IMG/VR virus record: IMGVR_UViG_3300028591_000086
Span: 96,001 to 160,000 of that record
DNA from: a virus
Lineage: Duplodnaviria; Caudoviricetes
Strand: one strand, 5' to 3'
DNA: 64,000 nt
The notes beneath the pieces were generated by a model. It was not told the origin of the DNA, ran no database searches, and saw only the letters and a list, made by a program, of their open reading frames with translations. Made by a program: the position numbers and the translations under genes. Shown in pieces: positions 19,780 to 50,000 of this stretch; the first letter of the stretch is position 1; each line of letters begins with the position of its first letter.

Positions 19780-20049
19780 TTATTCCTCTTCTTTTTCTTT
19801 AGCTTCTTTCTTTTCAGCAAGCTTTTTCTTAGCATCAGCTGAAGCTTTACGTACTTTAGCTGCAACATCATCATATCCGGCTGTAAGTTTATCGGATACG
19901 TTTATTCCAGCTTTATGTAATGCGATTGATCCAATAGCTGCTGCGGCTGCTGTAACAATTGCTCCCCATCTGAAGCCAGAAGTCTTTCCTTTCAGGTGAG
20001 CTTCACGAATCTGTGCTTTGTTTTCAAGAACTTTATTTTCTTCTGCCAT
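19780..20049 (-). CDS. small protein with one hydrophobic helix
   Basis: ATG at 20049 (MAEENK) with AGGAGG; late promoter AACA-AAATAA-TG at 20079-20090. Confidence 0.8.
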   Translation of the reverse strand: MAEENKVLENKAQIREAHLKGKTSGFRWGAIVTAAAAAIGSIALHKAGINVSDKLTAGYDDVAAKVRKASADAKKKLAEKKEAKEKEEE

Positions 20050-20260
20050 TTTTATCCTCCTAGGCAATTAAAAAGTTACATTATTTTGTTTAGTATTTAA
20101 TATTATTTTATTAAATACGGTGTAAAGTTGTGTATGTGATAGTTCATCTGTGTATCTTATATTTTTTCATCTTTTCCTCCACATTTAAATAATATATAAA
20201 CAAAAAATGTAACACCGCTTTGCGGTGTTACATTTCGTGATATTACAGAACAGAATGGAA

Positions 20261-28643: not shown

Positions 28644-30155
28644 CTAGATATCATAAGGCGTTATTCCTTCTCCTTTCATATCTACATATTTATCATTCTT
28701 ATTAATATCATACGGAGTAATACCAGTATTATAATATCTAGGTGCATAGTATAATGATTGAGGATGTCCTGGGTTAATGATACCAAAACACCAATAAGAC
28801 GGATTCATAGGATTATCTTTTCTAAATAATATATTCCAATTAGGATATTTATTATTACAATAATCTATATATTTCTTACAATCATCTTCTTTCCAGAATA
28901 ATACTCCATTAGATAAACCGCATCGGTGTTTTCTTTCATAAAGATCATCCATATATTCTTTTTCTTCGAGAGTAAATTCTTTAGAATTATGATGAAGTTT
29001 ATTATAAGGAAATATCATTTTACCATTATTCCAGAATTGAGGACCTTTCACTTCTACATAATTACCATTAATAATGAAATCAGGTATATAATGACGTACA
29101 TTATTATACATGTCTTTATATTCAAACATATTAGTATTTCTAATAATAGGAATATTATTATCTATACAATATATCCATACAGCTAATTCCCATGAAGAAT
29201 CAAAATATATACCATAATAATTATAATAAAACGATGGATGTAATGTACCGTATTTATTAATTATATCATTTTTCCATTGATCTGAACCTAAATAACTAGA
29301 TCTACCATATTTATTCAAACACGTACTTTTTATCTTTTCCCTAACTTCATAAGTTGAAATGAATGATAATCGACCGTATTTATCCATCATATATTCTTTA
29401 AATTCTGGTGTACCATATTCCATCCAATTACTTTTTCCATATTTTTCAAGATTATTTTGTTTTCTATTTTGCGTAGATTTTTCTTGAACTTCTGGAATCT
29501 GCATGACATTTGAAACACCATATTTTTCAATAATCTTTTCACGCATTTTATCTTTTATCTTATCATTTTGCAAAGCATGTTCAACGCCATATCTCTTTTT
29601 CAAAGTTTCAACAGTTTCATCATAAATCTTTTTACTTTGCAATGCGTATTCTACACCATATTTTTCTTTTGTGGTTTTTCTAGCTTTAGCATTAACCTCA
29701 GGATCTTTAAGCGAACATTTAGAACCGAATTTTTCAAGATTAGTAGATTCTATTTTATCTCTAATTTTTTTATTAGCCATACCGAATCCACCATGTTTTT
29801 CTAAAACCCTATCCAATGCATATCTTTGTTTTTCTTTATTTTCGTACGTATGTGCATAACCATATCGTTCAATATTTAAACAATCTTGACACAGTAAGGT
29901 TTTATGGTTTTCAATATTAGCAGTTCTAAAAGATCTCGTTTGTGTTTTACCACAGGATTTACACTTAAACGTGTATACCATAAGATTAGTGAATACTCTT
30001 TTTTCTCTGATGAATTTTACCTTATCAGGATGATATCTGTCAAAAATACGAGTTATATAAACCGAGTCAAACATATCAGGGTCATCAACTATATAATTTT
30101 CATTATCATCTTTAGGTATATCTATATCATCATATGAATTATAAATTCGTTTCAT
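28644..30155 (-). CDS. putative free-standing homing endonuclease, paralog of 17615..19168
   Basis: CKSC..CQDC; many KYGV repeats; FDSSWE...YIPDFIINGNYVEVKG; C-terminal GITPYD x2. Confidence 0.75.
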   Translation of the reverse strand: MKRIYNSYDDIDIPKDDNENYIVDDPDMFDSVYITRIFDRYHPDKVKFIREKRVFTNLMVYTFKCKSCGKTQTRSFRTANIENHKTLLCQDCLNIERYGYAHTYENKEKQRYALDRVLEKHGGFGMANKKIRDKIESTNLEKFGSKCSLKDPEVNAKARKTTKEKYGVEYALQSKKIYDETVETLKKRYGVEHALQNDKIKDKMREKIIEKYGVSNVMQIPEVQEKSTQNRKQNNLEKYGKSNWMEYGTPEFKEYMMDKYGRLSFISTYEVREKIKSTCLNKYGRSSYLGSDQWKNDIINKYGTLHPSFYYNYYGIYFDSSWELAVWIYCIDNNIPIIRNTNMFEYKDMYNNVRHYIPDFIINGNYVEVKGPQFWNNGKMIFPYNKLHHNSKEFTLEEKEYMDDLYERKHRCGLSNGVLFWKEDDCKKYIDYCNNKYPNWNILFRKDNPMNPSYWCFGIINPGHPQSLYYAPRYYNTGITPYDINKNDKYVDMKGEGITPYDI

Positions 30156-30278
30156 AATTTCATACTCCTATATTATGTATAATATATTATTGAAATTTAC
30201 AACCTAGATTACAATCGTGAAAAACAATAAAAAAGAAAAAAGCTCCTTTTTAAGGAGCTTTTCTTATGTTACTTTATT

Positions 30279-31049
30279 TTAAACACCTAAACGCGATGTA
30301 TCGATTTCTTGTAACAATTTGTGTATTTCTGTTACATCTATTATAAAATTAAAATATATATTTCCGCTTCCGCCAAAATCATCTCCAGCTATATCGACAC
30401 TGACGTCTGATATTATCGGATATTTTTTCTTAAGCAGATTCAATTGTTTTAAAGATTCATTATATGCTTTATCATAAATTCCTCCCCAACCATCATTACC
30501 ATTATTCCACCAAGAATCTTCACTATCTGGAAGTTTATCTAGATCCACGCCTGTATAAAATAATGCAGTTACTCCGCTCTCAAGTTTCATCTTACCGGTC
30601 TTATTCTTAGCATATTTAACAATTTCTTTTAAAAATGATCGAGTTATTTTTTCAGGCTTAAGATAATCATCCAAATCATCAGCTACAGAAAAATCATAAG
30701 CATCATTAAGCTTATTGATGCTATCACAAATGTTTTTTGCATCTTTTTTAATATTTGGAATGTGTTTAATGATGGTATTATTTAAGCTATCTGTTAATAA
30801 TTTTGTAATTTTTTCAACAACTACACGATTTTTCTTACAAAACACATTATATTTGCGATTATCTATCGCTGTTTCTATTCCAAGCGCAACACTTAATATT
30901 GCAAATGCTACAAATGGAAACAATACAAGACCAGTTAATATACCACCAATTATTCCTTCACTACTTTTTACTTCAGGTTTATTATTTATATTATCAGGTA
31001 CAGTAATACTAATAGGACTAGTACCTTCTTGACTTATAGTTATTTTCAT
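30279..31049 (-). CDS. putative virion (head) protein with propeptide, N-terminal paralog of 15234..16046
   Basis: MKITISQEGTSPISITVPDN...KSSEG followed by a hydrophobic helix. Confidence 0.65.
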   Translation of the reverse strand: MKITISQEGTSPISITVPDNINNKPEVKSSEGIIGGILTGLVLFPFVAFAILSVALGIETAIDNRKYNVFCKKNRVVVEKITKLLTDSLNNTIIKHIPNIKKDAKNICDSINKLNDAYDFSVADDLDDYLKPEKITRSFLKEIVKYAKNKTGKMKLESGVTALFYTGVDLDKLPDSEDSWWNNGNDGWGGIYDKAYNESLKQLNLLKKKYPIISDVSVDIAGDDFGGSGNIYFNFIIDVTEIHKLLQEIDTSRLGV

Positions 31050-31117
31050 AATTAATTTACCTCATATAAAAAAGTTATACATTATAAAGTTATGATATTA
31101 TAATGAGAGGTAAAAAT

Positions 31118-31516
31118 ATGAAATTATTACTTATACTTTTTATGATGATCTCTATACATTATTTATTCAGTATATTTTCACTGAATGCAATCGATAAATA
31201 TAAAAATAAAGAGTATTTCGAAAAAACATTCCCTAAAAAAATGTGTAAATACGATTACATTAATTATCTTATAACTGATAGTTATTTGTGGTCTATGTCT
31301 ATTTTATTACCGATAATAATAAATATAAACGGTTATATAACATGGGCTTCATTCATGGGAATAATAGTGAACGGAATAATTCGAGGAATAATAGAAGATC
31401 TAAGAATAAACAAAAAAATAATTAATGCATTTTCAGCAAATATTTGTTATATATTCCAAATATTTGTTACTGAAAGTATCTACGTTTTATTTTACAGAAA
31501 TATTTTATTTAATTAA
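31118..31516 (+). CDS. membrane protein, degenerate DUF3307-like
   Basis: ATG at 31118 after GAGG; four hydrophobic segments; KYDYI..L...S..W and DLRINKKIIN resemble phage DUF3307 proteins, but the His/Asp residues are mostly lost. Confidence 0.55.
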   Translation: MKLLLILFMMISIHYLFSIFSLNAIDKYKNKEYFEKTFPKKMCKYDYINYLITDSYLWSMSILLPIIININGYITWASFMGIIVNGIIRGIIEDLRINKKIINAFSANICYIFQIFVTESIYVLFYRNILFN

Positions 31517-31854
31517 TAAAAATATAGCTGGCTCGTAAGCCAGCTATATAAATTAAAGGAGATAAATCGAAAAAGATTATTTGTAAAATACCCCGTCTAT
31601 CTTTTTCGACAAACGTACATCTTATCATATAACCGCCAGGAGAATAAATGTGTGAACAAAAAATGAAAATGTTTAATAACAAACCCTATTACAACAAATG
31701 ACATTTTATTTCACGATTTATGATATCTTAATTTGACGTACGTTAGCAACAAAAAACAATTTAATTTCAAAATCATTTTAATAAAAATGATTAAGAAAGA
31801 TCAAAACAAAAGTAAAACATTTTAAATAAGGAGAAGTTTTATGTTTCAATTTCA
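31517..31854 (-). ncRNA. putative ~335-nt sRNA with three anti-SD tracts
   Basis: Late promoter AACA-TATAGA-TG (31864-31853), terminator 31523-31549 with minus-strand U-tract, no sizeable ORF, three UCUCCU tracts. Confidence 0.55.
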
Positions 31855-31885
31855 TCTATATGTTATATATCTCTTTTATTTTTTA

Positions 31886-32041
31886 TAAAAAAATGAGGAG
31901 GCCCGTAAGCCTCCTCATAAAACACAAAAAAAGGTCTTTTATACGAATGCAAAAGCACATAAAGCACTCGTATTATATGACTAAAAAAATAAGGGAGGAA
32001 TTCATGTTTATTTACGAGAGTAAATCATCATTGTTCTCTCA
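31886..32041 (-). ncRNA. putative ~155-nt sRNA with anti-AUG/anti-SD tract
   Basis: Late promoter AACA-TTATAT-TG (32051-32040), terminator 31893-31918 with U7, CAUGAAUUCCUCCCUU between two hairpins. Confidence 0.6.
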
Positions 32042-32074
32042 ATATAATGTTTAACTGATATATAAATTAATAAA

Positions 32075-32108
32075 ATTAATTCCCTACCATTACAGGTAGG
32101 GAATTAAT
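32075..32108 (-). terminator. intrinsic terminator after the RNAP beta gene
   Basis: ATTAATTCCCTACC-ATTACA-GGTAGGGAATTAAT. Confidence 0.8.
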
Positions 32109-32111
32109 CAT

Positions 32112-35100
32112 TTATTCTTTATTTTTAAAGTATTCTTCAGCTATTTCTTTTCCTCTCTCAAATAATATCTTAGAAAGATAACCATTTAAGAAAGTACTAC
32201 AAACCATTCTGTTTAGAACACCAATAGTACTTTGAATAAAGTCGATAGTATTAAACTTACTCTTGCTATTGATTCGATAAGCACATTCATCTTTTTCCAT
32301 AGTTTTATTGATTACTGTTTTAAGAGCAGGCATAAGTGCAATCTTATCACCAGGATGTCTATCTTCAACATGCTCTATATAATATTCAATAACTATACTA
32401 CCTGTCTTAGGATTAACAAGAACACCATTTAAACGATTCTTCATAGAATTTAATGGCTTAGAAACCCTTACTTCCATTCTTCGTTTACTTGGTGTATTTG
32501 TTAGGGCTTCTTCTTCTTTAATTTCTTTATTGATCTTCGCTATATATTGCTTAACAAATTTTTTAGCAGATTCACCCATTAAATCAGGATCTATAGTCCA
32601 ATACATTTTTATATCGTGTATTTTACCAGTGTAATTTGCACCTGAAGAGTGTCTAGCAATAGTATCAAGAACATCATCATCAACATCACCTAATTGATCA
32701 AGTAATGCCATATCAGAATCAGCATCTTTAGCATCTTCATATATTAAAAGTGGATCCCCATAAGTTACATGATCACCAACTTTAACACTTGAAATTATAT
32801 TAGCTGTTGGATTAAGAACAATTTGTTTTCGTTTAATAATAGTTGTGGCAACTTTCTTAGCTAATCGCCATGAAATAGCTGAAGAGTCTTCCTCAGTTAC
32901 TTCACCTTCATGAATTGCTACTCTAGCTAATGCCCCTTGTGTGTAAATTAAACGACCCATAGATTTTTTAAAGTAATCTTTATTATGAGTTATTATTTGT
33001 CCTTCTTTTATACTTTGTCCTTCTTTAACATCGACTTCAATATTATTAGCTAAGAAGAAATCCGAATTCTTAATATTTCTATTACCAAAATCTACTCTAT
33101 CAGTAGTTCCGTCATTATATTTTATAAGCACGTATTTGTTCTCTTCATCAACCTTAATAATTTTACCGTTCTGTTTAGCTTTATATCCAAAAGTAGACGA
33201 TACTTTATAAGGTACAGTACGTTCCATTCCAGTTCCTACCATAGGAACGTCAAATGCCGCTCCAGCAACAAGGTGTTTTGTTTGGGAAGATAAGAATCCT
33301 ATACGTTTAGGATCATTATAAATACCGTATGGAACACACTCTTCAAAAGCGTACAACGATGATGCCGACAGATTCTTAGTTTCTTTAACTGTAGTAGATT
33401 GAACAAATCCGTAAGTATTAACTATTCGAGGATTAGCAGTTAACTGTCTGTTAATACCAATATTACCATTATCTGGACCAGATATTGCTTCTGTACCAAT
33501 ATTACTTATAGTTTGTCCACGTTTATCCAACGTAAATGCTCTATCCATATTGATACCGTTAGGTCCTTTAAATGTAACTCCTGATTTTTCTCGTAATTCA
33601 CTACCTGGAGATGTGGTATCATAATTAACTAAAATAAAAGATTTATTAAGCTTATTTATAATATCTTCTTCAGGTATAGAAAATCCTTCTCTAGATTTTC
33701 CTTTTTGCATATAAATACGATAATTTTCAGAAATACTATTATATAATAAATCTGGTAATACTTCATAGTCTCTGATTCTCCAAGAACTAACTTCTCCAGA
33801 AGGAGTAAATTGATTATCTTGAAGTAAAGAGTTTGCATATATCAATAATTCACATAAATCTGTTGGGAGATGTAATTCTTTTATAATCTCTAAAGTCTTA
33901 GGATCTAAGAACAAATCTCTAAATGCTATCCAACCTTTAATAAGGTTTCTAGTTTCAAATTTATTATAAGTGAATTCGATATATGTATTTAAATTATCCA
34001 AATCTTTAAATTCCATCGTACTTAAAGGAAGCATACATAAACCGTTAAGCAACATTGCATGATCTAATGGGAACATTCCATAATACAAACTACCATCAGC
34101 AAATTGTAAATAGTTAGAATTATTCGGATCGATAAATGCTTTATCTTCTTCAGACAATTCTGAATGTTTAGTTCCTTTAGGAATAAATAAAGTTTTAATA
34201 TTTCCTGCTTCTAATACTTTTTGGAAACCAAAAGTACCAGATAAGAAAATTATTAAAGGTATTTCTTTAGACTGTATTTCAATCTTAGAGAAAATTTTCT
34301 TTACATTACCTTTAACTGAATTAATTGTCTTATCTATCAGAGAAATAAGATTTGGATTATCTGTAGATTTTATATCTTCAAAAATTAATTTTGAAACAGA
34401 ACTATCTAGTTTTACTTTATCAAGTGTTATAACTGAATTATCTGCACGTATACCTACAGGTATTTCGGTACTATCAAAATTAAATTTAATATGATTATTA
34501 GTAATAACATCATGTATTTCTTTCTGATTAAAATAATAAATAATTTCTTTAGTTGATTTAGGATTGATAATTATTTTATCATACATACATGCTAATTCAT
34601 CATATTCGATAGATGTATCGTATTCAAGATTTATTTTTGAGTTATTACCGCGATATATTTCGATGTCTTTAATATAATTACTTGCTTCTTTAGAAATTTG
34701 AGAAATAAATTTACTTAACGCAATAGATAATTTATTTATTTTTTGACCGCTTCTAAAAATACGTACTTTATTGTAATTTGATAATACGTACACTTCATCT
34801 GGTGATGTTTTAGTTACAGGTTTTAAAATCCATTGCTTTTTAAGCATTTTAGTATTTCCACCGATATACATAAATCCATCATCATCTATTTTTGGCATTT
34901 TAAATGTGATATTATGACTTTTACCAAACTTATCTTTAAGTTCGAATCTATATCTTTCAAGTTTATTAAATTGATCAGATATATCTTCTTTTTCAAATTT
35001 GACAATAGCCATTTGATTGGATTTATTTTCATCAGAGAATGCTTTAACGTTTGCAACTATATCTTGTGCTAAAGTTTTCTTTACATAACTCTTTGTAAAA

Positions 35101-37043
35101 TCTGTTAAGATTGATGTATTGAATGAACTATCTGCTAAATCAAGTTTTTCATCATGATTATCTATACTTACAGTATTTGCTCTGTTAAGTACATCTTCAA
35201 GTGTTTCGTTTTCATTAAATTTAATACTTTTGTATTTATCTTTAATGCTATTATAATATGCTTGTTGTTTAGCAGAAGTTTTTCCTTCAAGAGTTTCTCT
35301 TACACTATTTATAATTGCAGTAGTTGCATTAGATTGATTTTTCTTATTGTGTTCGTCCATGAAATCTTCATCATCATCAGAAGATTCATCTTCTTCAAAA
35401 TCATCCTCTTCTTCTATATCGTCTTCAGAAGGTTCATTATCAGAAATATTTTCATCAGGTTCTTCAGTTTCATTTTCATCTTCATCATTATCATCACCAA
35501 AATCCCAATCATCATCAGGATTATCTTCATCAGTAAAATTTTGGACTTTATTTATAAATCCGTGTAATTTACTGAGATTATTTATTTCTTTTTTCTCATC
35601 TGAAGATATAACTATATTTGTTTGTTTTTGTTTAGATAAATCGTTTTCAGTTTTAAATCCTAATTCTATTTGTTTATCTAAACGAAGTTTTGCTTCAGTT
35701 AATAATTCAAGTGTAGATTTATTATTATTTTTAGGATTATTATTCTTAATATAATCTAATAATTGTTTATCAGAAGCTTTAAGTTTAGAATTAAAATTAG
35801 AAATATCAGATTTTGATGTGATAGTTTTTTCAGCTTCAATAATAGGTTTATTAATGTCTTGTATCATCTGTTTATTAAATTCTTCATTATTTGAAATCGT
35901 TGAATTTATATTATTTGAAACTTCTTCACTGTCTCCATCAGAAGAGTTAATCATTTGTGTTACTAATTCATCAACTTCATTATCTGAAATTTCAGAATTA
36001 TTAAGACCTATAAGTATTTTCAATGAAGATTTAATAAATCTAAATGTAGAATCAAAACGCATTCCTTTTTCGATAAATTCTTTATAATCTACATAAAAAG
36101 CGTGTGTTTCATTATAAAAAATGAATGTAACATGATCCATTTGTTTAATATAATCTTTTAATAATCTTGATATTGGACTATCTTCGAAAGGAGAATCATC
36201 TAAAAGACCTATTACAAATTTTAAAATACCTAAATGACTAGATATTTCAGGATCACGTTTTAAAATATTTGATGTCAATCTAAATTCTGGATTTATCCAA
36301 ATATTAGGAATTCGTTTATCTTTGCTTGTTATTTTAAACGGTATTATTATATTTTTAAAATTATCAGCAATTGGAGGAAGTGAAGTTATGTAAGTTGAAA
36401 ACAGTGGAGATACTTCATTGTTATTACTGAATACTAATCTCAAAATGTTTTGTAGAATAATTGTTTCAGATGTTCTCATAACAGCTGGTCTACTACACAT
36501 TTTTAAATTAGGTAATGTTTCGTTTAAAATACCAGTTAAATCGAATACTGTATTTTTAAGATTTTTAATTATATAACTTGGTAATTGTGTTAAACCTGGT
36601 AGATATTTATTCTTAATTTGAATAAAATCTTCAGGTTTATTTGTTTTTATAATTTTTTTGCTGCCAGGGATAAATGGGTTTTTATAACCCATTTTTCTTG
36701 GAAAGACATAATTAAAAATCATTTGTTTATACATGTTTTCGCCAAAAAATAACTTAACAGTTTCTGCTACTTCACTAGAAGTATGAACTAATGGCAATAA
36801 TGCAACGTTTGATTTTTGACGAAGTAAAATTCCGTTTTTAGGAAAATCAATTTTATTTTTTCTTAACCTAAATAATTTTCCGAATTTCATCACAGGTGGA
36901 AGTAATTGTGAATATGCTTCCAAACCAAGAATTTCGTTTGGTGAAGAAATAAATAAACTTTCACCAGATTTAATTTTACTGGCTCTTAATTTTTCAAAAT
37001 TGTCAATTGACACGTCGTAAATTTTTGTATTGTCACTGTTCAT
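32112..37043 (-). CDS. RNA polymerase beta subunit, virion-type (phiKZ gp178-like architecture) with long N-terminal extension
   Basis: MPKIDDDGFMYIGG, GPDNGNIGI, NDPKRIGFLSSQTKH (=DDANRALMGANMQRQ), VGTGME, EDSSAIS, GDKIA...KTVI, GVLNRM; lacks the beta C-terminal clamp part; late promoter at 37117-37128. Confidence 0.9.
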   Translation of the reverse strand: MNSDNTKIYDVSIDNFEKLRASKIKSGESLFISSPNEILGLEAYSQLLPPVMKFGKLFRLRKNKIDFPKNGILLRQKSNVALLPLVHTSSEVAETVKLFFGENMYKQMIFNYVFPRKMGYKNPFIPGSKKIIKTNKPEDFIQIKNKYLPGLTQLPSYIIKNLKNTVFDLTGILNETLPNLKMCSRPAVMRTSETIILQNILRLVFSNNNEVSPLFSTYITSLPPIADNFKNIIIPFKITSKDKRIPNIWINPEFRLTSNILKRDPEISSHLGILKFVIGLLDDSPFEDSPISRLLKDYIKQMDHVTFIFYNETHAFYVDYKEFIEKGMRFDSTFRFIKSSLKILIGLNNSEISDNEVDELVTQMINSSDGDSEEVSNNINSTISNNEEFNKQMIQDINKPIIEAEKTITSKSDISNFNSKLKASDKQLLDYIKNNNPKNNNKSTLELLTEAKLRLDKQIELGFKTENDLSKQKQTNIVISSDEKKEINNLSKLHGFINKVQNFTDEDNPDDDWDFGDDNDEDENETEEPDENISDNEPSEDDIEEEDDFEEDESSDDDEDFMDEHNKKNQSNATTAIINSVRETLEGKTSAKQQAYYNSIKDKYKSIKFNENETLEDVLNRANTVSIDNHDEKLDLADSSFNTSILTDFTKSYVKKTLAQDIVANVKAFSDENKSNQMAIVKFEKEDISDQFNKLERYRFELKDKFGKSHNITFKMPKIDDDGFMYIGGNTKMLKKQWILKPVTKTSPDEVYVLSNYNKVRIFRSGQKINKLSIALSKFISQISKEASNYIKDIEIYRGNNSKINLEYDTSIEYDELACMYDKIIINPKSTKEIIYYFNQKEIHDVITNNHIKFNFDSTEIPVGIRADNSVITLDKVKLDSSVSKLIFEDIKSTDNPNLISLIDKTINSVKGNVKKIFSKIEIQSKEIPLIIFLSGTFGFQKVLEAGNIKTLFIPKGTKHSELSEEDKAFIDPNNSNYLQFADGSLYYGMFPLDHAMLLNGLCMLPLSTMEFKDLDNLNTYIEFTYNKFETRNLIKGWIAFRDLFLDPKTLEIIKELHLPTDLCELLIYANSLLQDNQFTPSGEVSSWRIRDYEVLPDLLYNSISENYRIYMQKGKSREGFSIPEEDIINKLNKSFILVNYDTTSPGSELREKSGVTFKGPNGINMDRAFTLDKRGQTISNIGTEAISGPDNGNIGINRQLTANPRIVNTYGFVQSTTVKETKNLSASSLYAFEECVPYGIYNDPKRIGFLSSQTKHLVAGAAFDVPMVGTGMERTVPYKVSSTFGYKAKQNGKIIKVDEENKYVLIKYNDGTTDRVDFGNRNIKNSDFFLANNIEVDVKEGQSIKEGQIITHNKDYFKKSMGRLIYTQGALARVAIHEGEVTEEDSSAISWRLAKKVATTIIKRKQIVLNPTANIISSVKVGDHVTYGDPLLIYEDAKDADSDMALLDQLGDVDDDVLDTIARHSSGANYTGKIHDIKMYWTIDPDLMGESAKKFVKQYIAKINKEIKEEEALTNTPSKRRMEVRVSKPLNSMKNRLNGVLVNPKTGSIVIEYYIEHVEDRHPGDKIALMPALKTVINKTMEKDECAYRINSKSKFNTIDFIQSTIGVLNRMVCSTFLNGYLSKILFERGKEIAEEYFKNKE

Positions 37044-37139
37044 AATTTTCTCTTTGTTTAAAAAAATTTATTGATTTTAAACTGTGATTTTTAAAATTTT
37101 GACGTTTAATTTCAATCATGAAAATGTTTATTGGGTTTA

Positions 37140-38450
37140 TTAAAATTTAAATTTTTTTTAATAAATTTTATTTAAAATCTTGATTTCATTTATATATAAT
37201 TTATATTAATTATTATTATACGAAGTATAATAATAATTATTTTATTAATATTATATATCTAGTTATTATATAATATTATTATAACTAGTTATTATATCTA
37301 GATATTAATATTAGTTATATAATAATATTAATTATAATTAAGATATTATATTTAGTTATTATATCTAGTTATAATAACTCTGTATTATTGCTAAATATAA
37401 TTAAAGTGATATAGCTAAAGTATATCACTTTAATTAATTATAATATAATATTTAGTTATAATATTTAGTTGTAATATTACATCTCAGGATTATATCTCTC
37501 TCTTAAAATATAAATATTACCTAACAATACTGTGTACATTAAATTTTAGTACTTGTATTATAACTAAAAATATTCTTGTAAATTATAGCTAAAGATAACT
37601 AAAATTTAATATAAATTATATATAAACGAATTTTGGATTTTGAATAAAATTTTGATTTTACAAATTTTAAAATTATTTTTTACAAAAATAAAATGACTTA
37701 ATTCGAAAAAGTTTGTAACATAATAATACAACACGAAAAATTAAATAAACGATTTTTTAATTTTTTGACACTAATTGTCCTACCCGCATTATTAGATTCA
37801 TGAAATGTGGTTGTTTACATTGTCTGTTGATTTTTCTAACGCATTTAACAGATTTGAATTTATTTATTTTTTCCGTGTAACACAAAAAATAATAAGGGTT
37901 ACTTGTTTAGAATCCTTCGAGATATAAATCCGATTTTGTTTAGTTATTGTCTGATATTTCGGATAAGACAATAGAGTTTGACCAATGCAAACCTGAAAGC
38001 ATTGGAATAACTAAACGACATATAATATTTTCTTAACGCATTTGTTAAAATGCGATTTAATATATATTTTTTTAAAAGCACGTGTACTTTTAAATGGTGC
38101 TAAATAAAATTGTTTTTAAAATCTCTTAGAATTTATGGATAAATCGACGGATCTTTATTTTTTAGAGATTTTAAAATATATTTTAATAAAATTTTAAAAT
38201 CAGATGAATGCATTTAACAATGGGAGTAATCGTAGGTTTTAAATCTTTTACATTCACGAGTCTTAAACGGATTGCGTAATCCTAAATAAGATATTTACAT
38301 GCAGACTGTTGATATCATTAAAGAAAAATAAAAGACCGTAACTAATTGATTTGAAATCGTAGATGATAAAACGTAATTGTTAAAGACAAGTTCAGCGGTA
38401 AAGACAGACTCGTTTAAAATCGATTTTATTATTTTATTTTAGTTCTTTGA
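37140..38450. other. long non-coding, extremely AT-rich region; candidate replication origin
   Basis: No ORF; 37140-37700 almost purely A/T with recurrent TAGTTAT(T/A)ATA and palindromes; near the switch from mostly minus to mostly plus coding. Confidence 0.4.
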
Positions 38451-38507
38451 CATTTATAAAAAAAATAACGCCTGGGCTTATTCCGCCCAGGTCGCTATTA
38501 TTTAATC

Positions 38508-48487: not shown

Positions 48488-48650
48488 AGCAAAATATTGT
48501 AAAAAAATATAGCGCATAAACATATTTGTGTATTAGAAAGAAAGCTGTGTTGTAATGTCATATTCTACTAGACAGAAATAAAATATTGAATCTTCTGTCT
48601 AGTAGCATTTGATTCAATACAGTTATTCTTTATATATTATGCCTATGTAT

Positions 48651-48724
48651 GGAGTTATGGAAAAGTTGGTTAATTCGTCAGCTTGTCACGCTGAAGATCC
48701 CGGGTTCGAGTCCCGGTAACTCCG
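48651..48724 (+). tRNA. trnD: tRNA-Asp(GTC), copy 1
   Basis: GGAGTTA/TAACTCC acceptor, TCAGC-TTGTCAC-GCTGA anticodon arm, CCGGG-TTCGAGT-CCCGG T arm; no encoded CCA. Confidence 0.93.
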
Positions 48725-48731
48725 TATAGTC

Positions 48732-48803
48732 TCCCGGATCGTATAAAGGTAGTTACATCGGCTTTTGGTGCCGATTGTGGGGGTTCGAGTCCTCCTTCGG
48801 GAA
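48732..48803 (+). tRNA. trnQ: tRNA-Gln(TTG)
   Basis: TCCCGGA/TTCGGGA acceptor, TCGGC-TTTTGGT-GCCGA anticodon arm, TTCGAGT T loop. Confidence 0.88.
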
Positions 48804-48807
48804 TAAA

Positions 48808-48908
48808 AACGATTCGAGAAAAAGCTAAACCTATATGCTCATAATTCGCAGCATTTAATTTGCGGCGCGAGGGAATAGGGAGATTGAGAAGCATAAACTC
48901 GAATCGTT
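48808..48908 (+). ncRNA. unassigned ~100-nt structured RNA
   Basis: Perfect 11-bp closing stem AACGATTCGAG/CTCGAATCGTT; internal CCTAT/ATAGG pairing. Confidence 0.5.
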
Positions 48909-48918
48909 ATTAATGTGA

Positions 48919-49001
48919 AGGAGCGTATCAGCGCGGTCTTATAAACCGTCCAGTATAATGCTTGTAACTGGTGGATGTGGGTTCAAATCCCACCGCTCCT
49001 A
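48919..49001 (+). tRNA. D-armless tRNA-like RNA with TAT (Ile) anticodon and long variable arm
   Basis: AGGAGCG/CGCTCCT acceptor; only 7 nt replace the D arm; GCGGT-CTTATAA-ACCGT; CCAGT/ACTGG extra arm; GTGGG-TTCAAAT-CCCAC. Confidence 0.65.
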
Positions 49002-49004
49002 CTC

Positions 49005-49706
49005 GGAATCCGTTTGGATTCCATTCTATTCTGTATTCTAGTAATGTCCAGTATGGATAAGAATGTGTTGTTACGCGTATATGTTACGCGTATAAAGTTA
49101 TCTTAAACACATATCAAAACAGATCATAAATGAATGAAAGGATAATTTGTGATTTGGCATGAAGAAAGGATCAGCAGTTATGAACTTCTGAAAAAAGTTG
49201 GAACACGTCATGTTAGGACTGAAATTCCGTCACTTTCAACAGTGGGTAAAGTCCGAGTATTGATCAACCGAGGCGATTGTCGGTTTCGACATAACTTCAT
49301 GCGTTGATTTTAACGTGAAATACCGAATTGAAAGAAGTGCTTAGTTTTATGGTTTTCTAATGCTAACTAACTCTGATTAGGGATGCTGTAGAACAGGAGC
49401 AACGTTTTTAATAGAGCTTGATGAGTTAGACAAAAAAGATCGAGTTACTAATCACTCGGTTGTAGATTTATCAGATGTTAAAGTTATAACCTTTCTTAAA
49501 TAACAACATGACACTGAAATGAATCTATTAATTGACCACTTAGCTTGTTTAGCTGTTTGGTGGGCGATAACAAAAAGCGCTCGTAATCCATGCGAGATGC
49601 AGAGCTCGTGCATCAAAAACGAATCTATTGATTCTTAGAGGAGGATTACGTCACTTTATGATTTTCTACGTTGGAATTTCATAAAGTGGTCCAGTACGAG
49701 AACCTG
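49005..49706 (+). ncRNA. candidate large structured ncRNA (ROOL/GOLLD size class)
   Basis: ~700 nt ORF-less, richer in GC than surroundings, many hairpins, embedded between tRNAs. Confidence 0.5.
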
Positions 49707-49710
49707 GTAT

Positions 49711-49784
49711 GGAGTTATGGAAAAGTTGGTTAATTCGTCAGCTTGTCACGCTGAAGATCCCGGGTTCGAGTCCCGGTAACTCCG
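49711..49784 (+). tRNA. trnD: tRNA-Asp(GTC), copy 2, identical to copy 1
   Basis: Sequence identical to 48651-48724. Confidence 0.93.
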
Positions 49785-50000
49785 TTTTATGCTGAATTCT
49801 AACAGCCGTTGTTCGATTTAATATAAACGATAGAAGATATATAAGGGTATATGCACTGTCGTTGTTCAGTCGAATGATAAAATGGAATATTGTCATTGAG
49901 AATCAGTGAATCGAGACGTATATGGCTAATCATTGTATGCGTTTTTAAACTATAAGATTAGACGGCTTGGAAATACCCTAACTTGTTTCCAGGTATTCGT

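Follow-up and report, generated by a model that had tools for sequence, protein, structure and literature searches.

Does a gap between two convergent phage genes encode an RNA of its own, and if so, what does this RNA do? The question is raised by a region of 595 nucleotides (nt; 31517-32111) in the window analysed here, a stretch of 64,000 nt which comprises bases 96001-160000 of the 195-kb viral record IMGVR_UViG_3300028591_000086 (29% G+C). The gap separates a gene of 137 amino acids (aa) on the plus strand from the gene of an RNA polymerase beta-like protein on the minus strand. It contains two predicted tandem units on the minus strand, unit A (32040 to ~31886, 154 nt) and then unit B (31853 to ~31515, 336 nt), and a minus-strand gene for a non-coding RNA is very probably real. 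The full proposal, a late and multivalent RNA which masks ribosome-binding sites and is akin to the CU-rich small RNAs (sRNAs) of low-GC bacteria, has about an even chance of being correct.

Two minus-strand units behind the RNA polymerase gene

The source of the window is an uncultured AR9-like jumbo phage of ruminant guts. Sheep and cattle gut are the origin of the DNA and RNA runs in which the stretch is found, and the 1643-aa protein encoded next to the gap (32112-37043, minus) matches phage RNA polymerase beta families, with ~29% identity to the counterparts in AR9, PBS1 and Staphylococcus jumbo phages. In the PBS1-like phage AR9 the late promoter consensus is AACA-(6N)-T(A/G), transcription starting at its last base, and seven late promoters drive antisense transcription (PMC5312081). 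The regions upstream of the genes of the present phage are enriched for two motif sets, TATATATTAT and AACA-N6-TG, which, judged by their letters, equal the early and the late promoter consensus of AR9, respectively, and are called early-type and late-type here. The early-type motif has 12 exact copies in the genome, nine of them intergenic and mostly 30-50 nt before a gene. Copies of AACA-N6-TG are 2.4-fold enriched in intergenic DNA (32 of 137), and 21 of these 32 sit 25-107 nt upstream of gene starts. Just two late-type motifs are present in the gap, at 31864 and 32051, both on the minus strand, and both (AACATATAGATG and AACATTATATTG) fit the AR9 late consensus, the start being a G. Upstream of the RNA-covered part, neither an early-type nor a late-type promoter motif was found on the plus strand. 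That the units are expressed late would follow from the analogy to AR9.

The 3' ends are marked by hairpins, H1 for unit B and H2 for unit A. Hairpins between co-oriented genes of this genome have their T run on the transcribed strand. For H1, seven of ten positions are T on the minus side and two of ten on the plus side; for H2 the minus side has seven and the plus side none, and both terminators therefore belong to the minus strand. The U tract of H1 runs down to ~31515, and its UACG loop (UNCG-type) can be read on the minus strand only. Among the 73 genome hairpins listed, the apex GCU-UACG-RGC occurs at H1 and H2 only. A terminator scan gave nine sites in 3 kb (0.6 expected), among them H3 at the end of the polymerase gene. 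An initial annotation, made from the letters of the DNA, had described a minus-strand AACA-N6-TG motif, a unit of ~335 nt and a U-tract terminator; these are present (AACATATAGATG at 31864-31853; H1), and every sequence quoted in it was found at its place.

Close homologues of the polymerase are encoded in gut metagenomes (99 to 49% identity over the C-terminal third), and the DNA downstream of the gene was compared in eight of these relatives, named L004 (99%), L003 (92%), L005, L021 and L009 (77%), L011 and L024 (63-64%) and L023 (63%). A quite different explanation has to be weighed as well, in which there is no dedicated gene: three minus-strand terminators would insulate the convergent genes, the motifs would be there by chance and the RNA would be a stable 3' fragment of read-through from the polymerase gene. 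The minimal motif AACA-N6-T[GA] is indeed common (396 sites in the genome, about one per kb and strand), and one RNA contig (31986-32197) crosses H3. Furthermore, a promoter weight matrix fails to separate the motif at 31864 from matches in coding regions; it cannot rank this site, and the promoter case therefore rests on conservation.

In L004, L003, L005 and L021 both AACA-N6-TG motifs stand at aligned places between diverged flanks, that of unit A being invariant or nearly so, and the stem of H3 differs in L003 with compensation. The DNA of L009, L011, L024 and L023 is not alignable, yet the same order follows the polymerase terminator: [AG]ACA-N6-T(G/A), a CCUCC-type tract, a hairpin whose apex is UACG or UAAG, and a U tract, with a second such unit behind it in most of the four. 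In all the relatives the units keep their place immediately behind the polymerase gene, and a CCUCC(U/C)UUA tract follows its terminator in every relative down to 63% identity; most other sequence of the units is not alignable beyond the relative of 92% identity. Motifs kept in this way in every relative examined, while the flanks diverge, speak against chance. The gene content of the gap varies, with an extra 363-aa gene in L005, a 106-aa gene in L021 and an 88-95-aa gene in L011 and L024. Units A and B of L021, L011 and L024 are separated by a complete small gene that has a terminator of its own, and a promoter motif is still present in front of unit B, which makes the units independent cassettes rather than parts of a single long 3' tail.

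Two observations on these inserted genes may be added. The 363-aa gene of L005 (L005:5109-6200), which has a faint DUF7487 match, lies between the polymerase gene and unit A, is convergent with the polymerase gene and is not present in the window. A terminator-like motif, CCCGAAAG...CGAAA...GAGTAGGGTTATTTTTT, recurs at L021:5925-5960, L024:7978-8015 and L011:6000-6035 as well as upstream of window gene 47189 and of two genes outside the window; it is thus common to several genome sites and to the small genes inserted between the units in relatives.

Outside this group, an IMG/VR profile search returned only distant relatives (<= 42% identity) with polymerase genes that have no such units downstream, single-protein locus searches in IMG/VR found none, and the gap DNA had no match among GenBank phages. 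The family of units seems to be limited to relatives of ~60% identity or more. An Rfam search at E <= 5 brought no hit for 31517-31864, and in 30000-33500 nothing came close to a gathering score.

Four metatranscriptome runs were mapped as contigs on 30200-33200; such contigs give no strand, no reliable ends and a rough level. Two runs of one cattle-gut sample have a contig over 31591-31841 with a depth of 68.3 and 15.6, which also carries 13 letters of an L004-type insertion, and a run from a second cattle-gut study has a contig at 31604-31765 with a depth of 36.3. In the same runs the contigs of the polymerase gene and the 137-aa gene have depths of 2-9 (137-aa gene 2.2). The depth of unit B is 2- to 30-fold that of the flanking genes, mostly ~10-fold; that of unit A is only ~3. 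The contig ends (31591 and 31841+13) adjoin variable indels and were not used as transcript ends. In run X5 (sheep gut, nearest strain) low-depth contigs cover both flanks and none covers 31311-32320, an uncovered part which is not counted as evidence. Uniform carry-over of DNA cannot give this depth pattern, and read-through from the 137-aa gene (2.2) is no explanation for it. These data show abundant RNA from the unit B stretch and no more. The ~10-fold excess of unit B over the contigs of the polymerase gene, together with a strand-specific enrichment of CUCC that needs selection (see below), makes it very unlikely that the gap holds no dedicated gene.

CU-rich tracts on one strand and short reading frames on the other

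What the putative RNA of unit B would offer to a partner are three CU-rich tracts. The initial annotation had regarded them as complementary to the Shine-Dalgarno (SD) sequence, two of them as the complement of SD, spacer and AUG, and all three are present as described (Table 1). They contain (U/C)CUCCUUA, the sequence of the 3' end of the 16S rRNA, and match the anti-SD sequence over 8 nt (CCUCCUUA). Their complement UAAGGAG is the most enriched 7-mer among the ribosome-site words upstream of the phage genes. The pentamer [CT]CTCC has a genome-wide frequency of 7.6e-4 per nt and strand; outside hairpins the gap (566 nt) has four copies on the minus strand and none on the plus strand, 0.43 being expected (P = 0.001). 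Over all loci, again outside hairpin stems, YCUCC was counted 25 times in the RNA sense and not once on the opposite strand (3.2 expected), and with one locus per lineage ~15 times (1.7 expected).

Tract 1 is kept in L004, and L005 and L021 have a different UCUCC tract at a similar place; the L003 counterpart of tract 2 is CAUAUAUUCUCCUC, displaced by ~10 nt; tract 3, which has no anti-start codon, is kept in L004 and L003. In five of six folded unit B RNAs their predicted probability of being unpaired is 0.5-1.0, and in the window 0.81-0.99. The two stems named in the initial annotation both exist, and pairs of them change on both sides in L003. In the long-range stem two pairs are altered on both sides and three on one side there; the arms of the hairpin next to tract 3 are GAAAAGAA/UUCUUUUC in L003, an A-U to G-C swap seen by eye in the aligned sequences, and its loop motif ACGGG(G)UA recurs in L003, L004, L005 and L021. 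Altogether six base pairs differ on both sides between the window and L003 (long-range stem, inner stem and terminator), a comparison of three sequences, two of them nearly identical, which is supportive and not a statistical proof.

Table 1 Predicted features of the gap, with window positions; sequences of minus-strand features are given as RNA sense
Feature	Position	Strand	Sequence or remarks
Unit B	31515-31853	minus	Predicted ~336-nt non-coding RNA (G of TG to end of U tract); promoter motif, terminator, no conserved open reading frame (ORF)
Promoter motif of unit B	31853-31864	minus	AACATATAGATG (AACA-N6-TG); predicted start G 31853
Tract 1	31821-31843	minus	CAU-N7-CUCC within CAUAAAACUUCUCCUUAUUUAAA; near 5' end; unpaired probability 0.99; complement of plus-strand SD + 7 nt + ATG
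Long-range stem, 5' arm	31735-31746	minus	AACGUACGUC; pairs with 31611-31621
Tract 2	31636-31650	minus	CAUUUAUUCUCCUGG; top of long-range stem; unpaired probability 0.81; complement of plus-strand SD + 5 nt + ATG
Long-range stem, 3' arm	31611-31621	minus	GAUGUACGUU; pairs with 31735-31746
Hairpin	31567-31609	minus	UCGAAAAAGAU / AUCUUUUUCGA; loop motif ACGGGGUA
Tract 3	31553-31566	minus	UUUAUCUCCUUUAA; just 5' of terminator; unpaired probability 0.83; complement of SD without start codon
Terminator H1	31522-31549	minus	12 pairs; tail TTTTATTAAT; apex GCU-UACG-AGC
Unit A	31886-32040	minus	~154-nt RNA; tract CAUGAAUUCCUCCCUUAUUU, complement of 31990-32006
Promoter motif of unit A	32040-32051	minus	AACATTATATTG (AACA-N6-TG)
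Terminator H2 of unit A	31893-31918	minus	Apex GCU-UACG-GGC; U7 tail
Terminator H3	32075-32108	bidirectional	End of RNA polymerase beta-like gene; terminator scan
Mini-ORF, 17 codons	31648-31701	plus	SD + ATG
Mini-ORF, 15 codons	31841-31888	plus	SD + ATG
Mini-ORF, 16 codons	32004-32054	plus	SD + ATG; opposite unit A

This pattern bears on the idea that the SD + ATG sites were left behind as relics when plus-strand genes were deleted, with nothing here under selection. The varying gene content of the gap among the relatives and a neighbouring insertion in the window that L003 and L004 lack would suit it. However, relics would not keep CUCC at nearly 8x the expectation, on one strand only and down to 63% identity; they would not preserve stems by compensatory change, and they do not account for the high RNA depth. 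A mere relic is hardly credible.

A more demanding question is whether the plus strand is the working one. Three mini-ORFs of 17, 15 and 16 codons sit behind AGGAGA or GGAGGA, so that this gap alone accounts for three of the eight sites with a strong SD, an ATG and <30 codons that lie between genes in the 195-kb genome. They might drive very short ORFs whose peptides are of no importance and which tie up tRNAs or ribosomes, after the manner of the lambda bar minigenes or CreT-type RNAs, or encode fast-evolving micropeptides, as the initial annotation had offered as its alternative, and the minus-strand RNAs would perhaps be antisense brakes. In 10 of 19 tract instances among the relatives an ATG stands 5-8 nt from the SD, compared with 8.9% for this pentamer in the rest of the genome, and sites of SD + ATG followed by unrelated codons turn up again in similar positions in L003, L005, L021 and L009. 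Moreover, the contigs are strandless, and H1 and H2 are without a plus-strand U tract, so that read-through from the 137-aa gene would be possible.

The reading frames themselves are not kept. Frameshifting turns the 17-codon ORF into one of 31 codons in L004, 13 unrelated codons replace it in L003, and three indel variants of it are found among the RNA contigs. The 15-codon ORF has a 15-nt insertion between SD and ATG in L004 and no SD in L003. Opposite unit A, an ORF of 16 codons in the window is down to six in L003, and L005 and L009 have peptides of 18 and 26 codons there that are unrelated to it. In L021 one SD is followed by ATG-TCA-AAA-TGA, that is three codons, and tract 3 as well as the tracts of L011, L024 and L023 and two of those in L005 have no start codon at a usable distance. 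No ORF on either strand of the units is conserved among the compared relatives. Because of these frameshifts, replacements and lost starts the peptides are not the conserved feature, and the lengths of 3-31 codons with frameshifts between relatives of 99% identity count against the plus-strand explanation. So do the lack of an early-type or late-type promoter motif on the plus strand upstream of the highly covered part, the depth of 2.2 for the 137-aa gene contig against 68 inside the unit, and the fact that L009, L011, L023 and L024 have no convergent gene which could feed transcription of the plus strand. A functional plus strand is therefore quite improbable.

Three other candidates were discarded. 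Minus-strand ORFs with 35 and 57 codons lack an SD and are interrupted in L004. A type I toxin-antitoxin system was rejected since no peptide is conserved on either strand and frameshifts separate near-identical relatives. A CsrB-like sponge would need the GGA motifs of the plus strand, whereas it is the minus strand that has the transcription signals; Rfam gave no match either.

Proposed masking of ribosome-binding sites and its possible targets

If the minus-strand RNA acts through its tracts, the following course may be proposed. By analogy to AR9, the non-virion RNA polymerase of the phage would start the RNA at the AACA-N6-TG late promoter, and the U-tract hairpin with its UACG loop would terminate it. 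Folding would leave three YCUCCUU tracts single-stranded, two of which carry CAU at the natural distance between SD and AUG. By pairing with mRNAs around the SD and the start codon, the tracts would bar the access of 30S subunits, and one RNA molecule could bind several messages. With CAU located 5-8 nt upstream in 10 of 19 instances, a tract often mirrors a whole start region, which fits an RNA covering both SD and AUG.

The search for such messages was confined to the phage. The four tracts pair better with the 155 phage start regions than with gene interiors (about -10 as opposed to -5 to -8 kcal/mol), as any anti-SD sequence would. The best pair is tract 2 with the start of gene 19780-20049 at -24.2 kcal/mol, which was reached by 3 of 100 shuffles and is not significant after four tests. 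The likeness to the start region of gene 51975 put forward in the initial annotation is not above chance, and this gene is not among the best five pairing partners. Duplex energies of the full-length RNA were discarded, as they did not separate start regions from interiors because an AU-rich RNA pairs with everything. The tracts look generic and not tuned to one phage gene.

A side observation concerns the marginal best partner of tract 2. In the window at 20150-20200 (minus) an exact early-type motif TATATATTAT is followed by a strong SD and an ORF of eight codons (MKKYKIHR). This ORF lies upstream of gene 19780-20049, which has a late-type promoter as well.

Several points weigh against the masking of ribosome-binding sites by a late RNA. 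After correction for four tests no phage start region beats flank-shuffled controls for any of the tracts, and the predicted pairing does not differ according to whether a gene has an early-type or a late-type promoter. Late messages of the phage itself would likewise be affected by a generic anti-SD RNA, and their sparing is unexplained. Unit B of L009 has only weak CU tracts. The excess of CAU at SD spacing is equally expected from real plus-strand start sites, which is the main reason why the minigene explanation survives. As for expression, the promoter weight matrix, built on gene-associated sites, has almost no information beyond AACA...TG, and the motif at 31864 ranks below its 25 best non-training sites, the matrix being of low power; the RNA evidence consists of assembled contigs with the limits given above. 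The antisense RNA suggested in the initial annotation is borne out as regards a minus-strand unit with an AR9-type motif and no conserved ORF; a specific partner among the 155 phage starts was not found.

A further explanation deserves attention, namely that the minus-strand RNA is real and its CU tracts act otherwise, as a sponge for an RNA-binding protein of phage or host, as a decoy of the 16S 3' end for a factor or nuclease specific to that end, or in the regulation of the neighbouring polymerase gene. All evidence for a conserved minus-strand unit applies to it as well. It would agree with the missing mRNA partner and with the constant position after the polymerase gene, and the apex GCU-UACG-RGC, found at only two of the 73 listed hairpins, could be a protein handle. 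On the other hand, pairing with start regions directly explains both the identity to the anti-SD sequence over 8 nt and the CAU at start distance, which protein binding does not, and we know of no candidate protein. Such a non-masking role appears rather unlikely, and masking of ribosome-binding sites remains the preferred reading.

A bolder version, in which abundant late RNAs are multi-copy mimics of the 16S rRNA 3' end and serve as general SD competitors in a clade of gut jumbo phages, is clearly unlikely. If true, it would amount to a reprogramming of translation start late in infection, with shut-off of strongly SD-led host and earlier phage mRNAs and not of one gene. Already if the units act by masking as proposed above, jumbo phages with their own transcription machinery would also control translation start, by an RNA that copies the docking sequence of the ribosome several times within one abundant transcript. 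Regulatory RNAs of lytic phages are barely known.

Surroundings of the gap and comparison with known systems

Some features of the neighbourhood are recorded here in their own right. Upstream of the RNA polymerase gene lies a gap of 1.46 kb (window 37044-38507) without ORF or SD on either strand. It contains iterons with a period of 13 nt at ~37242-37476, flanked by a 53-nt inverted repeat (37163-37215 / 37600-37652, 85%), and could be origin-like. On the other side, a 256-aa gene and a 503-aa homing-endonuclease-like gene (window 28644-31049) are apparently missing from L003 and L004, and this pair looks like a mobile insertion. In these two relatives (L003:5931-8379 and L004:8253-10630) the homologue of the 137-aa gene is directly followed by a gene of 667 or 679 aa, which by its size alone is probably the counterpart of the 681-aa radical-SAM-like gene of the window. 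Further away, at window 48650-49785, two copies of tRNA-Asp and a tRNA-Gln are found within a gene-poor region of 1.8 kb, which also has orphan late-type promoter motifs at 48519 and 49505.

Among known systems, the lambda bar minigenes and RNA toxins of the CreT type consist of a strong SD, a start codon and few codons; they act on the SD-bearing strand and need a promoter there. One such CreT-type toxin is presented in a preprint abstract. The gap resembles both in its strong SD + ATG followed by 3-31 codons with a peptide that is not conserved. It differs in that the SD-bearing plus strand has no promoter motif upstream, several tracts have no start codon and no particular codon is kept.

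The c4 RNA uses more than one short block of complementarity to mask a ribosome-binding site; it is cut from a longer precursor and acts on defined sites in its own operon. The proposed action of the unit would be alike, as a phage RNA which represses translation by multiple short complementary segments over the ribosome-binding region. In contrast to c4, unit B comes with a promoter and a terminator of its own, the search of the phage start regions yielded no specific complementary site for it, and Rfam gave no match to C4. The c4 antisense RNA of phages P1 and P7 is named in a review of phage sRNAs, which otherwise lists mostly cases from temperate phages as well as antisense RNAs of the jumbo phage phiR1-37 and nothing of the kind of this unit (PMC12197685).

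The late transcription units of AR9 share the promoter consensus and the G start. The present genome also has the AR9-type early motif TATATATTAT and a related RNA polymerase beta-like protein of the split type (~29% identity). Here, unlike in AR9, the units are intergenic, stand-alone and conserved cassettes with anti-SD tracts. In the AR9 transcriptome paper the terms 'noncoding', 'non-coding' and 'small RNA' have no occurrence (PMC5312081).

The closest likeness in proposed function is offered by sRNAs with CU-rich or UCCC motifs, that is LhrC1-5 of Listeria, RsaE, RNAIII and SprD of S. aureus and FsrA of B. subtilis, which bind the G-rich SD region and block initiation, and of which one molecule may hold several mRNAs; LhrC has three redundant motifs of this kind (PMC4132741). 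Common to these sRNAs and unit B are a stand-alone promoter with an intrinsic terminator, the absence of an ORF, and redundant C/U motifs in loops or single-stranded parts, one of them next to the terminator. The differences are that unit B is encoded by a phage, a jumbo phage of lytic type, and is apparently read from an AR9-type late promoter by the phage polymerase; that its motif YCUCCUUA corresponds to the full 16S 3' end and not to UCCC, often with an anti-start codon at natural spacing; and that there is no relationship in sequence or in Rfam. The unit is not a member of a described family; it is proposed to work like the CU-rich anti-SD sRNAs.

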